A DNA stretch of 64,000 nt from Tautonia rosea. Lineage in GTDB: Bacteria; Planctomycetota; Planctomycetia; Isosphaerales; Isosphaeraceae. Every line of letters begins with the position of its first letter. Within the stretch, counting starts at the first letter, position 1. The position numbers and the translations under genes are program-made. Below the pieces are notes generated by a model, which was not told the DNA's origin, ran no database searches, and was given only the letters and a program-made list of their open reading frames with translations. The stretch lies in the NCBI RefSeq assembly GCF_012958305.1, contig NZ_JABBYO010000008.1, positions 1 to 64,000 of the forward strand, written 5' to 3'. Shown here one piece after another: positions 783-58,845 of this stretch.

Positions 783-1433
783 TTGGCGGCGGCCCGGTTA
801 CCGCGGTCGTTAGGCGTCACACAAGTGTCCAAACTCCGCATCGCCGCATCAAGCATCCCTCACTGGGTATCTGAACTACGGTGGGCGTACTTCTTTTGGA
901 CCGCTGCCCTCTTCCCAATAGCAACCTTGTTGCACGAAGTCGGGCACCTCGTCGTCGCAGTAAGCTTCGGTTTCCCTGCGCAGCTGCACTATGCAAGCGT
1001 GAGCGGGGTTCCCGAAACTCCACCCTTTGGCGGAGAGCCTCTCTATGTTGCGGCTGCAACTCTCGCAGGGCCGGCAGTGACAGCTTTGCTCATGACGATC
1101 GGTGCTATGTTTCGCACGCAGCAATGGGGTCTTCCGCTCATGGCGGCTTGCCTCCCGCGATTCGTCATCAATGTCGTATTCATGTTTCAACAATCACTTG
1201 TTGCAGTGGGAATTGCTGAGCCCGCCAAGCCCAGTTTTGACGAAGTTACTGCGGCTTATGCACTCGGCTGGCCTGCGCCTCTATTGGCGTCAGCCGGGGC
1301 ACTGGTCTTTCTTGCAGGCCTTGTATTGATTTGGCGGTGGGCGGGAAGGCTTGGCTTTCTAATACTTGCAATCGGCGCTGCTGTCGGAATGGTTACTTGG
1401 CTTGGTCTGCTTGGGCCACTGCTATTGGCATAA
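783..1433 (+). CDS. polytopic membrane protein with HExxH motif (putative membrane metalloprotease)
   Basis: 216 aa with several hydrophobic helices. LLHEVGHLVVAVSFGFP contains HEVGH inside a predicted TM segment. Family unknown and start uncertain. Confidence 0.4.
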   Translation: MAAARLPRSLGVTQVSKLRIAASSIPHWVSELRWAYFFWTAALFPIATLLHEVGHLVVAVSFGFPAQLHYASVSGVPETPPFGGEPLYVAAATLAGPAVTALLMTIGAMFRTQQWGLPLMAACLPRFVINVVFMFQQSLVAVGIAEPAKPSFDEVTAAYALGWPAPLLASAGALVFLAGLVLIWRWAGRLGFLILAIGAAVGMVTWLGLLGPLLLA

Positions 1434-1468
1434 CGCGCCGATGACGGCTAACCCCTCGCTCAAGCTGA

Positions 1469-1552
1469 CCCGCGGAGGCAGGTGCTGTAAGCCCGGCCTG
1501 AGCCAGAGGTACTATCGTCTCAGTCCGGGCTTACAGCACCTGCCTCCGCGGG
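1469..1552. repeat. 28-bp perfect inverted repeat (hairpin) with 28-nt spacer, intergenic
   Basis: CCCGCGGAGGCAGGTGCTGTAAGCCCGG at 1469-1496 and its exact reverse complement at 1525-1552. The spacer itself is nearly palindromic (cctgag...ctcagt). Confidence 0.8.
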
Positions 1553-1821
1553 CAGCTTAGCTCGAACGACTATGAAGCCGGGGGTGGGTCAAGCGGGAGG
1601 CGGACGGTTTTTTGGGGCAGTGGCTCAGCTCCTTTGCCGGGGGCGGTCGCATCGAGGTTCGCCGTTGGATGCATTCGACTCTCCGAGGTCTCGACCCGGG
1701 GGTCGGCCTCACTCATCCGATACGGCCCAAACTCTATCACGACATCACGATTGAGGACGTGACCATTGAGTAGCATCGCAACGGGGCGGCGATCCAACTC
1801 GGCTGGGGTGGAGAAACCGGC

Positions 1822-52815: not shown

Positions 52816-53805
52816 ATGACGAGCAACGACGCGACGGCACCATCGGGGTCGCGAACCCTTTCGAGGCGCCAGTGGATTCAGGGAACGCTCGGTGCCCTCG
52901 CCGGGACGGCAATGGTTCCGGCCGCGGCTCGCACCCTGCTGGCGACCCCAAAAGGGGCCCCCCTGAACCCCCCTCGCTACTGCCTGAACACCAGCACGAT
53001 CCGGGGGGCCAATTCCGAGGTCGGTCTTGTCGATCAGATTCGCATCGCGGCCGAAGCTGGTTACGACGCGATCGAACCCTGGCTCCGCGACATCAACCGA
53101 TTCAAGGATGAGGGCGGTTCCGTCCGTGATCTCGGGCAGCAGATTGCCGATGCAGGACTGGCCGTGCCCAGCGCTATCGGCTTTGCCCGGTGGGCGGTTG
53201 ATAACACCGACGAACGGGCCGCCGGCCTGGAGGAAGCCCGACGCGACATGGCCACGCTGGCCGCGATCGGCGGCACCCGGCTGGCCGCCCCTCCTGTCGG
53301 CCTGACCGATCAACGCTACGGCGATTTGCTCACCCTGGCCGAGCGCTACGCCACCTTGCTCGAACTGGGCACCGAGTTCGGCGTGGTCCCCCAACTGGAG
53401 GTCTGGGGTTTTTCCCAAACCTTCCAGCGGCTTGGCGAGGTGGCGTTTGTCGCGGTCGAAAGCGGCCGACCCGACGCCTGCATCTTGCCCGACGTGTATC
53501 ACTTATATAAAGGTGGATCAAGCCTTGAAGGGCTCTTGTACCTCAACGGAGCCTCGATTCATGTCTTCCATCTGAACGATTACCCCGCCGAACCCCCTCG
53601 GGAGTCGATCAGTGATGCCGATCGCGTGTTTCCGGGAGACGGCGTTGCCCCCTTTGATCGATTGAGGGAGATCCTCAGTGCGATCGGCTTCAACGGCACC
53701 TTCTCGCTCGAACTGTTCAATCGTACGTACTGGACCCGTGATCCGCTTGAGGTTGCCCGCGAAGGGCTTCGCAAGATGAAGGCCGTCACCGGCGATCCCG
53801 CCTGA
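52816..53805 (+). CDS. TAT-signal sugar phosphate isomerase/epimerase (xylose isomerase-like TIM barrel)
   Basis: TAT motif SRRQWIQGTLGALAG, then TIM-barrel blocks (GYDAIEPW, HVFHLNDYP, FSLELFN). Confidence 0.65.
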   Translation: MTSNDATAPSGSRTLSRRQWIQGTLGALAGTAMVPAAARTLLATPKGAPLNPPRYCLNTSTIRGANSEVGLVDQIRIAAEAGYDAIEPWLRDINRFKDEGGSVRDLGQQIADAGLAVPSAIGFARWAVDNTDERAAGLEEARRDMATLAAIGGTRLAAPPVGLTDQRYGDLLTLAERYATLLELGTEFGVVPQLEVWGFSQTFQRLGEVAFVAVESGRPDACILPDVYHLYKGGSSLEGLLYLNGASIHVFHLNDYPAEPPRESISDADRVFPGDGVAPFDRLREILSAIGFNGTFSLELFNRTYWTRDPLEVAREGLRKMKAVTGDPA

Positions 53806-53934: not shown

Positions 53935-54939
53935 TCAATCAATTTTTATAACAATTTTTCCGAATTGTTCAGAGTGCTCCATGCGTCGAAGGGCATCGCG
54001 TAAATCGTCCAGGAAGTAGGTCTGGTCGACGACGGGCTGAATTCCACGGTCCTCGACGAGTTCGAGCAACGCGGCGAATTCAGCCGGGGTGCCCATGGTG
54101 GTGCCCAGCAACTGGAGTTGCTTCCAGAAGATTGGAAACACGTTGAGCGAGGGGACCGGTCCGGTGGTGGTCCCGAAGTTGACCAGCCGACCGCCGGGCC
54201 GGAGCAGGTCGACGGCATGGGCAAAGGTTTCTCCGCCGGCGCTGTCGATGACCACGTCAGGCCTGCCCCCAAGCGCCCGAAGCGTGTCGGGCCAGTTCGG
54301 ATCTCGATAGTTGACGCCGCCCTCGGCTCCCAGCTCTTTTGCTCGTTCGAGCTTCGCGTCACTTCCCGACGTAACGAAGACCCTCGCTCCCAGGGCTCGG
54401 GCGATTTGCAAGGCATGGATCGCCGTCCCGGCGCCGATGCCGGTCACGAGCACCACCTCACCGGGCTGGACCTGCCCCTTGGTCACCACGGCCCGATACG
54501 CCGTCAACCCGGCCAGGGGCAGTGCGGCCGCCTGCTCGAAATGCAGCCCGGCCGGTTTGGGGAAGACATTCTCCAGGGGCACGACGATCAGTTCGGCAAA
54601 GGTCCCGTGATCGGGCATGCCGAGAATCCGGAACCGTTCTCCCTGAACACGTTCATTCCGGCCCCAATCGAGACTCGGGTTGATGATCACATCTTGCCCA
54701 ATCCGGAGCCCCTCGACTCCGTCTCCCAACCCTGCAACCTGCCCGGCACCGTCGGAACCGAGAATCGCGGGCAAGGTCACATTCGGGTACATGTTCCGCG
54801 AAATCCAGAGATCGCGGTGGTTCAGCGCCGCCGCCCGGAGCCGGATGACGACCTCGCCGGGACCGGGGGATGGGTCGGGCACCTCTTCAAGGTGGAAGTG
54901 CTCAATCGACCCAAACTCTCGGAGGACCATCGCCTTCAT
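53935..54939 (-). CDS. zinc-type/MDR alcohol dehydrogenase or quinone oxidoreductase
   Basis: MKAMVLREFG...GEVVIRLRAAALNHRDLW, Rossmann GIGAGTAIHALQIARALGARVF. Confidence 0.75.
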   Translation of the reverse strand: MKAMVLREFGSIEHFHLEEVPDPSPGPGEVVIRLRAAALNHRDLWISRNMYPNVTLPAILGSDGAGQVAGLGDGVEGLRIGQDVIINPSLDWGRNERVQGERFRILGMPDHGTFAELIVVPLENVFPKPAGLHFEQAAALPLAGLTAYRAVVTKGQVQPGEVVLVTGIGAGTAIHALQIARALGARVFVTSGSDAKLERAKELGAEGGVNYRDPNWPDTLRALGGRPDVVIDSAGGETFAHAVDLLRPGGRLVNFGTTTGPVPSLNVFPIFWKQLQLLGTTMGTPAEFAALLELVEDRGIQPVVDQTYFLDDLRDALRRMEHSEQFGKIVIKID

Positions 54940-55340
54940 CTGCTCCCTCCCGACCTCAAAGAACCGCGCAGCCTGCTCACAAATCCGGCTTTGCGAGAAC
55001 GACACCCCTTCAGCCTACGCCGTTTTGGACTCCCGGCTCAAGTGCCGCGGAACCTGGCAGCTACGACAGCAACCACCAGGTGGCACCATGTCCGAGCAAA
55101 TTCCGATCCAATCGGCAGTTCGGTCCATCGACAAACCGAACCGACTGACAACGGTGCCATCGGGCCGTCACGACCGACGAGTTGTTCGCGCGCCCCAAAC
55201 AACCAAGGCACCCGAGCGCAGACCCATCAGGAAACCGCTCACCCACCCCTCGATCTGGTTGCTCCCAACAGGAAGTTGGACGAGGGGATTCAAGTTCGTT
55301 CTCGATTGACTCCGACAACCTTGACAGATAAGATCCTGTA

Positions 55341-55877
55341 TTGCCAGGGTTCGCGATGTTCCACATCTCCCTGGTCGAGGAAACTCGCATGATTCGAGGC
55401 GATCGGAAACGGGATCGTGGCTGGATCGGCCTGGGCATTCTGCTCGGGTTGATGATCGGTGGTTTGCCGACCGTCGACGTTTGCCCGTTGCCAGCCGGCG
55501 CCCGTTCGACGCATCACTGCGAGCCGTTGCCGGAGCCTGAGCCGTCAAAGCACCACTGCTGTCACACTGTTCCAGGGGTTCCGAACGCCCTTCCCACCCG
55601 ATCAGCGGTGCCGGTTCCCGTCTCCCCAGCGGCTGACGGACACTGTCGGACGCGAACCAACTCCTGTTGCTGCGTGACGAACGTCGCGCAACCGGTGGTC
55701 GATCGCTCGGTTCGTTCCAGCATTTCGCGCGATCAGTCCCGCACATCCCACTCCTTCGAGCCGACGCTCACGCTTCCAAGCTCGCCGTCGGCGTCCCTCC
55801 TTCTCGCGAGCGGTCTCCCCCGACCGGCTCCATCCTCGGTTCCCCTCATTCTGACGACCTCTCGGTTGCGGAATTAG
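55341..55877 (+). CDS. hypothetical membrane protein with His/Cys clusters
   Basis: One TM (WIGLGILLGLMIGGL), then STHHCEPLPEPEPSKHHCCH and NSCCCV. Coding status uncertain. Confidence 0.3.
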   Translation: MPGFAMFHISLVEETRMIRGDRKRDRGWIGLGILLGLMIGGLPTVDVCPLPAGARSTHHCEPLPEPEPSKHHCCHTVPGVPNALPTRSAVPVPVSPAADGHCRTRTNSCCCVTNVAQPVVDRSVRSSISRDQSRTSHSFEPTLTLPSSPSASLLLASGLPRPAPSSVPLILTTSRLRN

Positions 55878-56278
55878 CAAGGCCTCGCCCCTCGCTCATT
55901 GAGGCCGGCGCATTCCGTTCGTTGTTGTTGTCTGGCGTTCTCCATCCGCCCCGTGATCTTCCCTGGTCGCGTTCTTCCAGGGTCGACGGATCGGATCAGG
56001 TGCCTCTCTACAACGATCCCTGAACTGCCGCTGCCCCGTGTGTTTGCCAACGCCGACGGGTCGCGAGTGATCGCGCGCCATCCGACCGGGCGCGCCTCGC
56101 ATCACCGTTCCCTCACGCGACACTCGCCGCCGAGATCGCCGAGCGATTCACCCTTGAACCGAACCGGTTGAGGTGTTGATCGATCGGTGACCGGCCCGCG
56201 TCCCGTCTGCGGTCGGAGAGCGTCCATCACGTGCATTTCATGTTCGGAACCGAATTCGACTGATCTTTCCTGAGGAGT

Positions 56279-56971
56279 TTGAGACCCATGACGCGCCGAT
56301 CGAATCTGTTCGCCCTGGGTGCCTGGCTTGTTGCCATGGCCCTTGCGGCCGTACCCGCTTCTGCCGACACACCCGCCGCCGCGTGCGCCCTAAATCAAGG
56401 GGCAGCGAAGGCTTGCTGCGCCACCGATGTGAAGGTCACGCTTACCTCCACCACTGTCACTGAAGCCAAGGCTTGCTGCGCCGACGCCAAGGCTTGCTGC
56501 GCCGAGGCTAAGGCTGCCGAAGCCAAGACCTGCGACGCCTCATGCTGCAAGGATCAAGACGCCTGCAAGGCTTGCTGTGCCGACGCCTGCGCCTCCTGCT
56601 GCGACGCCGCAAAGAAGGCCGCTGAAGCCAAGGCTTGCTGCGCCGACGCCAAGGCTTGCTGTGCCGAGGCCAAGGCTTGCTGCGCCGACGCCAAGGCCTG
56701 CTGTGCCGAGGCTAAGGCTGCCGAAGCCAAGACCTGCGACGCCTCATGCTGCAAGGATCAAGACGCCTGCAAGGCTTGCTGTGCCGACGCCTGCGCCTCC
56801 TGCTGCGACGCCGCAAAGAAGGCCGCTGAAGCCAAGGCTTGCTGCGCCGACGCCAAGGCTTGCTGTGCCGAGGCCAAGGCTTGCTGCGCCGACGCCAAGG
56901 CTTGCTGTGCCGAGGCTAAGGCTTGCTGTGCCGACGCCAAGGCCTGCTGCGCTGCAACGAAGGCGTCGTGA
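56279..56971 (+). CDS. signal-peptide cysteine-rich heptad-repeat protein (about 60 Cys), candidate metal-binding/storage protein
   Basis: TAT-like signal MTRRSNLFALGAWLVAMALAAVPASA (T-R-R-x-x-L-F). The body is almost entirely KACCADAKACCAEA heptads plus TCDASCCKDQDACKACCADACASCCDAAKK blocks. Confidence 0.6.
   Translation: MRPMTRRSNLFALGAWLVAMALAAVPASADTPAAACALNQGAAKACCATDVKVTLTSTTVTEAKACCADAKACCAEAKAAEAKTCDASCCKDQDACKACCADACASCCDAAKKAAEAKACCADAKACCAEAKACCADAKACCAEAKAAEAKTCDASCCKDQDACKACCADACASCCDAAKKAAEAKACCADAKACCAEAKACCADAKACCAEAKACCADAKACCAATKAS
56440..56945 (+). repeat. intragenic tandem repeats: 21-nt (7-aa) units nested in a duplication of about 250 nt
   Basis: gccaaggcttgctgcgccgac / gccaaggcttgctgtgccgag units. 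The large segment aaggctgccgaagccaagacctgcgacgcctcatgctgcaaggatcaagacgcctgcaaggcttgctgtgccgacgcctgcgcctcctgctgcgacgccgcaaagaaggccgctgaagcc occurs twice. Confidence 0.85.
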
Positions 56972-57347
56972 GTTAGGTTGAGCCGTCTCGCTTGGGAGCG
57001 TGGTTCCCGGACGGTTGGATCAGTCTCACCGTGATCTTCCAATGCCCGGGTGATGGGAGCGCGGGTGGCCGAAGGCCAGGGAATGGGTCCAATCCGCAGT
57101 CAACTCGCAACGGAACTTCGAAACCACGCTGAGCCAGAGCAATTACACCACAACCGGCCCGCGATCCTGTTCCCCGGAGGAACGATCGCGGGCCATTCTT
57201 GTGAACGCAACGGTCGAGATCAGCAAAGACGTCCGCACCCTCACGCCGTCATGACACAGGCTCTGGGGAGCGAAAGTCCTGCCATGCAGATGCGGGCCAC
57301 GGGCTTTCTCATGTCATGGTGCAGACATGAGATCGCCCTCTTGGGCA

Positions 57348-57788
57348 TCAGGCACGCTCGCCCATCACGCTCACCGTCACGCGACGACGATGGGGATGGG
57401 TCCGATGCTCCCAGAGAAAGATTCCCTGCCAGGTCCCCAGGTCGCAGCGGCCTCGGGCGATCGGAACAGAGAGCGACGTCTGCGTCAGAATCGATCGGAC
57501 ATGAGCCGGCATGTCGTCCGGGCCTTCAAGCGTATGCCGAAAAATCGGATCGCCATCGGGCACCAGGCGGGCCGTGTAGCGCTCCAGGTCAGAGCGGACA
57601 CTCGGATCGGCGTTCTCGCAAATGATCAGCGAGGCGCTCGTATGATGCACAAACACCGTGCAGAGCCCCTGATCGATGCCAGACTCGGCCACAATTGCCT
57701 GGATCTGGTCGGTCAGTTCAACCGTGCCCCGCCCCCTCGTCACAACCTCGATCGAGTCCGAGTGAATCATGGCCGCCATCGCTTTCAA
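57348..57788 (-). CDS. yjbQ: YjbQ/UPF0047 family protein (secondary thiamine-phosphate synthase-like)
   Basis: 146 aa. GLCTVFVHHTSASLIICENADPSVRSDLE...GPDDMPAHVRS is the YjbQ family signature. Confidence 0.65.
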   Translation of the reverse strand: MKAMAAMIHSDSIEVVTRGRGTVELTDQIQAIVAESGIDQGLCTVFVHHTSASLIICENADPSVRSDLERYTARLVPDGDPIFRHTLEGPDDMPAHVRSILTQTSLSVPIARGRCDLGTWQGIFLWEHRTHPHRRRVTVSVMGERA

Positions 57789-57989
57789 TCCCTGCGCGAC
57801 GCCCTGAAACGCCGTCTGAGTTCAGCCCCGCTGCCGAATCGCCATCGGTCACGGAGCCGGCATCCAATACTGGACTGGCGTTTCAGGGAAGACTCCGAAT
57901 GAAGTTCCCATCCGGCGGCATGAACCAATGATCCACCGGACGCAGCGTTCTCAACGCGATTCCAGACGATCTGGAAGCGAGCGATCCGC

Positions 57990-58334
57990 TCAGGAATTCG
58001 GCTCTTCGAGACCGGGATCCGCCGGCTCGGTCTCGATCGGGGCCGGTTCATCGGCCGGAGGCTCAATCGTGGTCGGCTCGTCGGCAGGAACCGGCTCGTC
58101 GGCAGGAGCGGTCGACTCTCCGCCAGGGGTCGCGACCGCGTCGCCGGGCATACCGCGCATCAGGCCGGAGCGGTCCATTCCACCCATGTCGTCGCCGGGC
58201 ATTGCCGGAGCGGCGGGCTCAACGGGCGTCATTGCAGGATCATCGCCAGGGCCGGCATCGCAGCCGGTCACGAGCAAAGCGCCGCACAGGGCGAAACCGG
58301 TCATCCAGGCAAGTCGAGTCTTCAATGCGGACAT
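57990..58334 (-). CDS. Met-rich, Pro/Asp/Glu-rich lipoprotein
   Basis: Lipobox ALLVTGC. Met cluster PAMPGDDMGGMDRSGLMRGMPGD. Acidic Pro-rich tail. Confidence 0.4.
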   Translation of the reverse strand: MSALKTRLAWMTGFALCGALLVTGCDAGPGDDPAMTPVEPAAPAMPGDDMGGMDRSGLMRGMPGDAVATPGGESTAPADEPVPADEPTTIEPPADEPAPIETEPADPGLEEPNS

Positions 58335-58845
58335 CGTGTTGCAGCTCCTGGTTTGAATGCTCAACGAAGGATCGACCACCGCGAATCCCGGAACCAGCCG
58401 GGCCTTAGAGCGTTTTTTGATTGCCTGTGAAGGGTCAGGGAAATGGGGACTGGCTCCGAGTCTTCGAGGTGCCTGTCCCCCATTTCCCGGCGAGCCGCTC
58501 CGCTCAATCGATAACCACTCTAGGCGGTCGTAAGCGTCTCAAGTCGGGGAGACCGACTCCACACTCTTCTCTCTCCTGTACGCAAACGGCATCCCAATCT
58601 GTTGGTTTTCTCGAAGAGGTTCGAAACGGTTCTCGATCGTGCAAGGCCTCTTGATCAAACCCGTCGCCGGGTGCATCAGGTTGCCCAGACGACTCGCGGC
58701 CGTCAGAATGCAGACATCTCTACCGACCGACGAATCTGCCACCCCGATCCGTTCGATTCCTCAGCCGCCCTCGCCCTGCCCCGAACCGAACCGAACCGAA
58801 CCTCGGCGAGGCCGCCACAGGCAACCCCCGGGAGCTCATCGAGCA

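Follow-up and report, generated by a model that had tools for sequence, protein, structure and literature searches.

We analyzed a 64,000-nucleotide (nt) stretch of the planctomycete Tautonia rosea (contig NZ_JABBYO010000008.1, positions 1 to 64,000; the whole stretch is referred to as the window) and found a two-gene cassette in which a gene for a hyper-cysteine exported protein follows a gene for a membrane-anchored partner. Sequence comparison with related genomes indicates that the cysteine (Cys)-rich open reading frame (ORF) is a real gene coding for an exported protein, apparently unannotated, and that the partner is a genuine gene and a conserved companion of it. The single best reading of the Cys-rich protein is an exported metallothionein-like thiolate sink for soft metals, because its composition agrees with the sequence criteria for metallothioneins except in size and location. 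We propose this function tentatively, at somewhat less than an even chance. The Cys density of the protein is the maximum of the window in any frame (15 Cys per 50 amino acids (aa), versus 9 for the next ORF). The features of the gene are as follows.

56288–56971, forward strand: gene for the hyper-cysteine exported protein, 227 aa, best start ATG 56288.
56288–56365, forward strand: signal peptide MTRRSNLFALGAWLVAMALAAVPASA, 26 aa, with AxA-type cleavage before DT, as read from the sequence.
56462–56923, forward strand: tandem array of a 204-nt (68-codon) unit, 2.2 copies, built of 21-nt heptad units.
56468–56509 and 56630–56713, forward strand: shorter heptad runs.
56531–56602, forward strand: nine-Cys core module, copy 1, CDASCCKDQDACKACCADACASCC (aa 82–105), placed by Cys positions and alignment A4.
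56735–56806, forward strand: nine-Cys core module, copy 2, CDASCCKDQDACKACCADACASCC (aa 150–173).
56834–56959, forward strand: longest unbroken heptad run, 6 × KACCA[DE/A][A/T] (aa 183–224).

The enclosing ORF (56279–56971, forward strand) was present in the ORF list. Its TTG at 56279 lies only 1 nt past a GAGGAG Shine-Dalgarno (SD) sequence (56272–56277), and ATG 56288 lies 10 nt downstream of the same sequence and lines up with the ATG of every orthologue in the alignment. Because the spacing from GAGGAG and the alignment both favor ATG 56288, we took the gene to be 56288–56971. An SD site of the GGAG type is retained in five related genomes. The protein contains 82 Ala, 45 Cys, 27 Lys, 18 Asp, and 10 Glu residues in 227 aa and is very soluble-looking (37% Ala, 13% Lys, and 14% Asp plus Glu). 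The mature protein of 201 aa is 22% Cys and has no His, Tyr, Phe, or Trp.

Fifteen KACCAxx heptads, dominated by KACCA[DE]A, account for 105 of the 227 residues (46%). The rest comprises the signal peptide, a non-repeat N-terminal stretch (...ACALNQGAAKACCATDVKVTLTSTTVTEA), and the two copies of the nine-Cys module. Tandem Repeats Finder (TRF) reported 21-nt and 42-nt units and the 204-nt unit in 2.2 copies at 56465–56923 (98% matches, score 904). The two full copies of the 204-nt unit (56462–56665 and 56666–56869) differ at three positions, all of them synonymous third positions; the unit is in frame with 98–99% identity, and the longest exact repeat inside the gene is 197 nt. A preliminary description of this DNA had pointed to the ORF at 56279–56971, which exists, and had counted about 60 Cys in 230 aa, which is too many, and had called the protein almost entirely heptad, which exceeds the share measured here. 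It had also described a perfect internal duplication of about 250 nt with 21-nt sub-repeats; the repeat and its sub-repeats are present, whereas the unit is shorter and near-perfect. The recent expansion and repeat variability that it expected agree with repeats that are unstable and differ between T. rosea, T. plasticadhaerens, and T. sociabilis.

Comparison of T. rosea with Tautonia sp. JC769 over the first 61 codons gave 13, 6, and 35 differences at codon positions 1, 2, and 3, respectively. Because the differences concentrate at third positions, the frame appears to be translated and constrained. The sense frame alone is continuous, from the conserved SD, ATG, and signal peptide through to the stop codon, in five genomes with unrelated repeats, and conservation of the amino acid sequence extends to both the nine-Cys module and the N-terminal stretch outside the repeats. 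The antisense ORFs across the T. rosea repeat are fragmented (51, 66, and 94 aa). These observations oppose the explanation that the gene is non-functional, either a chance ORF over a GC-rich tandem repeat or an artefact of a collapsed or expanded repeat in the assembly. That explanation can draw on three frames that are open across the repeat, one of them antisense (QQALASA), on the choice of the antisense frame by one gene caller in metagenome contig L079, on the lack of the exact protein in a large sequence collection, and on an assembly of JC769 that breaks in the gene. An assembly error could, however, touch the copy number of the repeat and not the existence of the gene, and we consider the explanation very unlikely.

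The JC769 orthologue is split over two contig ends (L004:10001–10183 and L076/L001, the end of JBFEFH010000029.1). Its N-terminal fragment (61 aa, 70% identity) is cut at one contig end, and its C-terminus (...AKACCAEAKACCDEAKSCSDEAKACCDAKTAA, followed by the stop codon) ends another contig. Because the two ends of the orthologue fall on different contig ends, the repeat breaks the JC769 assembly; because the break lies inside the gene, the repeat copy number in T. rosea is to be treated as provisional and is less certain than the existence of the gene. The exact T. rosea protein, with either start, was absent from a collection of 15 billion sequences that contains its T. rosea neighbor. A word-indexed homology search with the Cys-rich protein retained none of 8000 candidates at E ≤ 1e-3. 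An exhaustive HMMER search of 1.84 billion representatives gave 25 matches, the sole true one being the 61-aa JC769 fragment; the other 24, for the most part (DAKSSLG)n sequences of eukaryote-like character, were rejected as spurious and due to heptads or low complexity. In L079, the Joint Genome Institute (JGI) gene call took the antisense QQAF.SA frame at 1170–1796 (reverse strand) versus 1320–1797 (forward strand) for the Cys-rich gene. Hyper-Cys repeat genes are thus nearly invisible to standard pipelines, in which this one was missing from the collection, matched only as a fragment, broken in assembly, or called antisense.

Orthologues occupy the same slot in Tautonia sp. JC769, T. plasticadhaerens, and T. 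sociabilis, and a fifth copy is present on L079. In four Tautonia genomes, the slot is conserved and lies between yjbQ and a zinc alcohol dehydrogenase (Zn-ADH) gene, with the Cys-rich gene on the Zn-ADH side and convergent with yjbQ. The orthologues called as genes encode 288 aa in T. plasticadhaerens and 260 aa in T. sociabilis, each with a signal peptide and 17–18% Cys. Across the four Tautonia orthologues, the Cys content is 17–22%, with 0 His and 0–1 aromatic residues. Vicinal CC pairs predominate (11–19 per orthologue), and there are also C-x2-CC and C-x3-CC spacings with Asp or Glu next to them. The sole segment that could be aligned across all Tautonia orthologues is the 24-aa nine-Cys module, with the consensus CDASCCxDExACxACCxDGCxxCC (alignment A4), in which acidic residues adjoin the Cys.

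The repeats turn over completely between Tautonia species while the Cys density stays. The T. plasticadhaerens orthologue has isolated xCCA units separated by Pro-rich and Val-rich spacers and few DNA repeats, and the T. sociabilis orthologue (L078:6326–6571) has 10.2 copies of a 24-nt repeat coding for GDGCGDCC. The T. sociabilis array is Gly-rich, non-helical, and metallothionein-like, and it looks like an independent invention of a repeat at the same locus. Because the orthologue repeats are entirely different from the T. rosea heptads, the heptad helix is not a conserved feature, and the helix that had been put forward as the functional principle gives way to Pro-rich or Gly-rich segments or (GDGCGDCC)n in the orthologues. 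These comparisons suggest that thiol density and the local spacing of Cys, rather than a helical heptad fold, are what selection maintains. In regards to the wider distribution, a homologue search in other Planctomycetota, which the preliminary description had proposed, recovered the Tautonia orthologues and did not find the cassette beside yjbQ in more distant Isosphaeraceae-like contigs. The two-gene cassette is so far known only from the genus Tautonia (Isosphaeraceae, Planctomycetota).

The signal peptide is conserved in all orthologues. Its arginine pair is kept in four of the five and is missing in T. sociabilis (MNRLMF); the five signals read TRRSNLF, TRRLSLL, NRRMSFV, NRRTLLV, and NRLMFAV. 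Twin-arginine translocation (Tat) signals follow the consensus S/T-R-R-x-F-L-K and combine an extended n-region with an h-region of mild hydrophobicity. When the five signals were compared visually with this published consensus, only one was hydrophobic at the Phe position; their n-region spans two residues, their h-region is highly hydrophobic, and basic residues are lacking from the c-region. The twin-arginine signal that had been suggested for the protein is thus a poor fit in the five orthologues, and the arginine pair itself is not conserved. These features suggest that export by the general secretory (Sec) pathway is more likely than by Tat, roughly twice as much so. A canonical Tat signal (SRRQWIQG, with a long n-region, MTSNDATAPSGSRTLSRRQWIQGTLGALAG...) was found in the AP-endonuclease-2/xylose-isomerase-like TIM-barrel protein at 52816–53805 (forward strand), which provides a contrast within the same genome to the short arginine-pair signal of the Cys-rich protein.

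The partner gene and the sequences around it comprise the following features.

55306–55334, forward strand: sigma-70-like promoter match, TTGACT-17-TAAGAT, a consensus match just upstream of the partner gene.
55389–55877, forward strand: partner gene, 162 aa, membrane-anchored product, start ATG 55389, SD GAGGAA at 55376–55381.
56076–56222, forward strand: conserved non-coding leader, within the 410-nt gap (55878–56287) between the two genes.

A partner homologue lies directly upstream of the Cys-rich gene, on the same strand, in all five genomes (T. rosea, JC769, T. plasticadhaerens, T. sociabilis, and L079). The protein has a basic N-terminus, one transmembrane (TM) helix (residues 13–24), and a Pro/Ser/Arg-rich tail that is predicted to be disordered; in the AlphaFold2 (AF2) model (pLDDT 45), the TM helix is the sole ordered part. 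By the positive-inside rule, the Cys-bearing tail would face the periplasm. Seven Cys are invariant (C32, CC57–58, C86, and CCC93–95) among 42 invariant alignment columns overall, and the C-terminus is conserved as PAPxxxPLxLxTxRLRN. The His clusters (HHC and HHCCH) occur in T. rosea and partly in JC769 and nowhere else among the five. The upstream membrane protein with HHCEP...HHCCH and CCC clusters, previously placed from TTG 55341, is thus real and its Cys are conserved, whereas its His are not and its start is better placed at ATG 55389. The partner gave no Pfam or NCBIfam match, and a profile search with the partner alignment gave one further homologue, P0146, which is the L079 copy. Annotation of the partner is poor, with a 72-aa fragment called in T. 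sociabilis and the opposite strand called in JC769; in three assemblies it was overlooked, shortened, or assigned to the opposite strand.

The sigma-70-like match is the sole one in 55000–58600, against 0.3 expected from shuffled sequences, and is a possible promoter of the two-gene cassette. The leader contains two invariant blocks, CCGACCGGGCG at 56082–56092 and GGCCCGC..CCCGTCTGCGGTCG (CCCGTCxGCGGTCG) at 56193–56215 (alignments A2 and A3; five genomes). The blocks are mutually complementary (CCGACCG and CGGTCGG), lie about 120 nt apart, and bracket a variable insert of about 100 nt; an inverted repeat pairs 56076–56088 with 56210–56222. The folding z-score of the leader is modest (−1.8) and covariation is sparse, and an Rfam scan of 54900–58600 returned just one sub-threshold, snoRNA-like chance match and left the leader unmatched. 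This segment could be a 5′ leader RNA or a regulatory leader or operator of the Cys-rich gene.

Comparison with known families gave no assignment. The Cys-rich protein and its orthologues matched no Pfam or NCBIfam model at E ≤ 1, as was the case for all three T. rosea proteins considered here (the third being a small lipoprotein described below), and the Cys-rich protein matched no PDB chain at E ≤ 10, SmtA and Csp1/Csp3 entries included. Structure prediction, also proposed in the preliminary description, was carried out on the single T. rosea sequence with AF2 and gave helices at 55–81, 90–149, and 158–226 with a break at CCKDQDAC, at low confidence (pLDDT 55.7, pTM 0.42). A Foldseek search of this low-confidence model against the PDB yielded, at E ≥ 0.69, nothing but bundles of long helices of a generic kind, among which there was no Csp fold. 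Because the confidence of the model is too low, we make no claim about the fold.

Metallothioneins are defined by multiple metal-thiolate clusters in small Cys-rich proteins (PMC7558416). The four Tautonia orthologues resemble them in composition, with high Cys, CC and CxxC motifs, and almost no His or aromatic residues. The likeness to SmtA/BmtA, MymT, and the large fungal repeat metallothioneins extends to about 20% Cys arranged as CC, CxxC, and CxxCC, to low complexity, to modular repeated Cys segments, and to a Cys density that is conserved instead of a fold. In regards to size and location (below about 10 kDa and cytosolic in metallothioneins), the T. rosea protein is different, having a 201-aa mature part behind a cleavable-looking signal peptide. 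It also differs in its conserved membrane-anchored partner, in the dominance of CC pairs, and in the lack of homology; no match to a bacterial metallothionein family (SmtA/BmtA, MymT) was obtained by Pfam, NCBIfam, or PDB search.

For copper stores that are exported, and for periplasmic thiolate stores of metal, the Cys-lined Csp1 sets a precedent (PMC7558416). Like Csp1, the Cys-rich protein is exported and Cys-rich, and the prediction for T. rosea is a mostly helical protein whose Cys recur on a helical repeat. It differs from these Tat-exported four-helix bundles in having no family or PDB match, a signal that is not convincingly of the Tat type, adjacent Cys pairs on a 7-residue repeat, and Pro-rich and Gly-rich orthologues that are incompatible with a bundle. 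Of the two resemblances suggested earlier, that to metallothioneins is borne out by composition and that to Csp1 is not, as no family, PDB, or Foldseek search returned a Csp. To our knowledge, metallothionein-type proteins are uncommon in bacteria and reside in the cytosol, and Csp1, exported by Tat, is the sole Cys-lined metal store established as exported.

TRI/CoilSer peptides are de novo designed three-stranded coiled coils with core Cys that bind Hg, Cd, As, and Pb. By analogy, heptads with Cys at or beside the core of packed helices would give thiolate layers, for which soft-metal coordination is plausible. The designed peptides have one Cys per site and Leu cores, whereas the T. rosea core would be of Ala and Cys with two Cys per heptad. 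A precursor of a ribosomally synthesized and post-translationally modified peptide (RiPP), either a bufferin-type metallophore or another Cys-repeat RiPP, was considered and rejected, as there was no family match and no adjacent MNIO/DUF692 or radical SAM gene. Cell-wall preparations of planctomycetes contain Cys-rich YTV-domain proteins (PMC8567305; PMC12673574). The Cys-rich protein shares with the YTV-domain proteins of Planctomycetia a planctomycete-specific occurrence, export, and richness in Cys (PMC8567305; PMC12673574), and differs from them in having no YTV motif, 0 Tyr, no Pfam match, a much smaller size, and an occurrence in one genus. Literature searches returned nothing specific on heptad Cys-rich planctomycete proteins, secreted bacterial metallothioneins, or DUF6969, a family mentioned below.

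A third gene had been grouped with the cassette by the preliminary description.

57990–58334, reverse strand: small lipoprotein, 114 aa, lipobox LVTG|C, RefSeq WP_169977511.1 (‘hypothetical protein [Tautonia rosea]’).

The lipoprotein has a Met-rich patch, with 8 Met in about 33 aa (AMTPVEPAAPAMPGDDMGGMDRSGLMRGMPGD; motif MPGDDMGGMDRSGLMRGMPGD), followed by an acidic Pro/Glu-rich tail. Orthologues in three other Tautonia genomes retain the patch and the tail; the patches read PGMPGDPAMPGDEPGGMDRSGLMRGMPGD in JC769, STDMDDMGGMPAPSGEMDMETP in T. plasticadhaerens, and EGGMMMEG in T. sociabilis, and include MDDMGGM..EMDM and GGMMMEG. A Cu(I)/Ag(I)-binding role of the patch is plausible from its sequence. 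We take its MDRSGLMRGM segment to resemble the MDHSxMxGM Cu(I) repeats of CopA/PcoA, a resemblance that served as a lead and not as a test. The lipoproteins of T. rosea, JC769, and T. plasticadhaerens gave no Pfam or NCBIfam match, CopC, CusF, and PcoC included, so that the Met-rich lipoprotein on the reverse strand and its conserved patch stand, in four Tautonia species, and its likeness to the CopC/PcoC/CusF families does not.

In all four genomes the lipoprotein gene is immediately upstream of yjbQ on the same strand, in a unit convergent with the Cys-rich gene. Its membership in the cassette is doubtful, the tie being one of genus-level synteny, and the three-gene metal-handling patch proposed earlier does not hold, as the lipoprotein gene precedes yjbQ on the opposite strand and the surroundings contain no metal genes. 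The syntenic neighbors comprise a PMT glycosyltransferase, exonuclease VII, an enolase-superfamily enzyme, an M20 peptidase, the AP-endonuclease-2/TIM-barrel protein, and Zn-ADH, and further YjbQ, an MBL hydrolase, Uma2, DXS, and a polyprenyl synthase. The YjbQ encoded in the window shows 100% identity to the T. rosea protein on record.

Proteins with CC heptads occur elsewhere. A degenerate DNA pattern for KACCAxAKACC matched three species-representative genomes, all of Planctomycetota: Tautonia sp. JC769, a Thermoguttaceae metagenome-assembled genome (MAG), and a Pirellulaceae MAG. In the Thermoguttaceae MAG, the encoded protein has 131 aa and combines xxCCxxx heptads with a signal peptide. 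The Pirellulaceae MAG (L003:1584–2951) encodes a 455-aa protein with a signal peptide, (GKACCAE/GKPCCAE)n, a further Cys-rich region, and a C-terminal coiled-coil-like segment (ENAQLRARLEMMERLFEMQRDM...), a larger architecture on the same CC-heptad repeat. A looser pattern, CCAxxKxCCAxxKxCC, gave 71 metagenomic stretches, many of them junk repeats, with four coherent small secreted groups.

L062:1205–5561, also L055, L066, L046, and L017: freshwater group, gene cluster that includes a (KKGCCAA)n protein of about 95–100 aa.
L009:3907–4257, L026:7704–8015, L073:872–1294, and L072: termite-gut Bacteroidota-like group, (KACCADK)n.
Soil group: proteins resembling the Thermoguttaceae one.
L052:1814–2254: lipoprotein inside a Na+-pumping decarboxylase operon (OAD_gamma neighbor).

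These small secreted (KxCCAxx)n proteins resemble the T. rosea protein in that CC heptads (KKGCCAA, KACCADK, or GKACCAE) come after a signal peptide or lipobox, and differ from it in their size (95–140 aa) and in having neither the nine-Cys module nor the partner gene; they are at most putative homologues. The metagenomic CC-heptad proteins gave no Pfam or NCBIfam match. In the freshwater group, a conserved cluster comprises a phasin, the CC gene, DUF6969, and a secreted (seleno)protein with a presumed metal-binding YHS domain (NF041384), a gene set that may tie CC heptads to metal or selenium handling. The termite-gut and L052 genes, which are Bacteroidota-like and code for small secreted proteins or lipoproteins of (KACCADK)n or (ECCAEKK)n heptads, have no evident metal context in common. 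Because the metagenomic proteins are possibly convergent, they offer the T. rosea protein weak support by analogy. Two multicopper oxidases with a CCASDKDCCASDKGCC tail (L010 and L020, from a metagenome or metatranscriptome) were not used as evidence for copper, since the motif follows a TM segment and is maybe an acylation site. They have a eukaryote-like multicopper-oxidase C-terminal domain (HCHFQEHADE.CMAHM), a TM segment, and then CHKGCCASDKDCCASDKGCC.

We propose the following mechanism for the thiolate sink. Because selection keeps Cys density, acidic neighbors, and export, and not a fold, the protein would function through thiolates; we infer its metal binding from composition. Outside the cytoplasm, thiolate clusters would hold numerous ions of soft metals or metalloids (Cu(I), Cd, Zn, Hg, or As(III)), and the capacity of the sink would be tuned by expansion and contraction of the repeat. 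Long helices would arise from the Ala-rich heptads of T. rosea, with one Cys of each pair in the helix-helix interface and the other beside it, and paired helices would thereby hold tetrathiolate layers between them. Export would probably proceed via Sec, unfolded and metal-free, so that metal loading would occur in the periplasm. The membrane-anchored partner may keep the protein reduced, or may load, unload, or tether it, which is the weakest step of the proposal.

Several observations weigh against this proposal. Pfam, NCBIfam, and PDB searches indicate no homology to any known metal-binding family, and the mature protein, at about 20 kDa, is bigger than classical metallothioneins. The neighbors are housekeeping genes, and the syntenic neighborhoods contain no metal-sensing regulator, transporter, P-type ATPase, RND pump, or chaperone. 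No recognized metal-responsive riboswitch was found in the Rfam scan. The planctomycete-type CC-heptad genes in L002 and L003 are without metal neighbors, and the metagenomic CC-heptad proteins may owe their likeness to convergence of low-complexity sequences and not to homology. The repeat copy number may be mis-assembled, as the JC769 assembly breaks within the gene. Finally, the 45 thiols of a Sec-exported protein would meet periplasmic disulfide oxidants, which favors cross-linking over free thiolates.

The last point bears directly on the strongest rival, in which the protein is a disulfide-cross-linked structural component of the envelope or extracellular matrix, analogous to keratin-associated proteins, and inter-chain disulfides between CC pairs harden a layer. 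Repeat turnover would then be surface-protein diversification, and the membrane partner would be a tether or an assembly factor. Export, low complexity, and fast-evolving species-specific repeats agree with such a role, as do the Sec-like signal, which implies exposure to periplasmic oxidants, the lack of metal genes nearby, and the known presence of Cys-rich YTV proteins in planctomycete cell walls (PMC8567305; PMC12673574). However, the protein is not a YTV protein (0 Tyr and no Pfam match), has no anchoring, beta-rich, or Pro-rich structural domain, and is very soluble-looking in its Ala, Lys, and acidic content. Its acid-flanked CxxCC motifs and lack of His and aromatic residues are typical of metal-thiolate proteins, and restriction to one genus would be odd for a core envelope component. 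We regard the structural role as unlikely, though as the main competitor.

A thiol role that does not involve metals is more improbable still. The protein would be a periplasmic sink for redox equivalents, electrophiles, or oxidants (HOCl, quinones, or peroxides) or a carrier of sulfane sulfur or polysulfide, with the partner relaying reducing equivalents. The extreme thiol density, the export, and the invariant CC and CCC of the partner next to its membrane anchor are compatible with this role, and the conserved lipoprotein nearby has a Met-rich patch; such patches are known as oxidant scavengers. The syntenic neighborhoods contain no adjacent thioredoxin-like, DsbD/CcdA, Msr, rhodanese, Sox, or Dsr gene and the proteins provide no CxxC thioredoxin-fold motif context. 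Sequence does not separate this role from metal binding.

The arrangement implied by the preliminary description, a pre-folded Csp1-type helical-bundle copper store exported by Tat and working with a His/Cys membrane protein and a Met-rich lipoprotein as a three-component periplasmic copper buffer, we judge very unlikely. The arginine pair in four of five signals, the long AF2 helices in T. rosea, the conservation of all three genes in Tautonia, and the presumed similarity of MDRSGLMRGM to MDHSxMxGM Cu(I) motifs speak for it. It nevertheless fails at each point of membership that could be tested. No sequence match to Csp/DUF326 or the PDB and no Csp by Foldseek was obtained; the arginine pair is lost in T. 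sociabilis, and the signals have a short n-region, a strongly hydrophobic h-region, and a hydrophobic residue at the consensus Phe position in one case of five. The Pro-rich and Gly-rich orthologues cannot make the same bundle, the His of the partner are not conserved, and the lipoprotein, which fits none of the CopC, CusF, and PcoC models, is part of the yjbQ transcription unit that converges on the Cys-rich gene.

We regard the cassette proteins as an orphan family that has in effect escaped annotation and whose mode of action resembles, at most, that of a protein type already known. A bolder extension of the metal-sink reading, possible but in our view doubtful, is that the cassette is the founding example of an exported thiolate ‘sponge’ with a dedicated partner, a secreted equivalent of metallothionein whose capacity is set by slippage of 21–24-nt Cys-coding repeats. 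On the same doubtful footing, the class would take in, as relatives or by convergence, the (KxCCAxx)n proteins scattered through Planctomycetota, Bacteroidota-like, and freshwater bacteria, and would have been overlooked because low-complexity filters and gene callers miss such genes or call them antisense.

If the structural role were true, the protein would be a new Cys-rich envelope component of planctomycetes, distinct from the YTV proteins. If the thiolate sink is true, a Sec-exported 45-thiol protein with a conserved partner and species-specific repeats would represent a new form of extracytoplasmic buffering of soft metals (or oxidants) and would call for an explanation of how thiols can stay free in an oxidizing compartment. 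It would also be a natural example of a capacity that evolves through repeat slippage.

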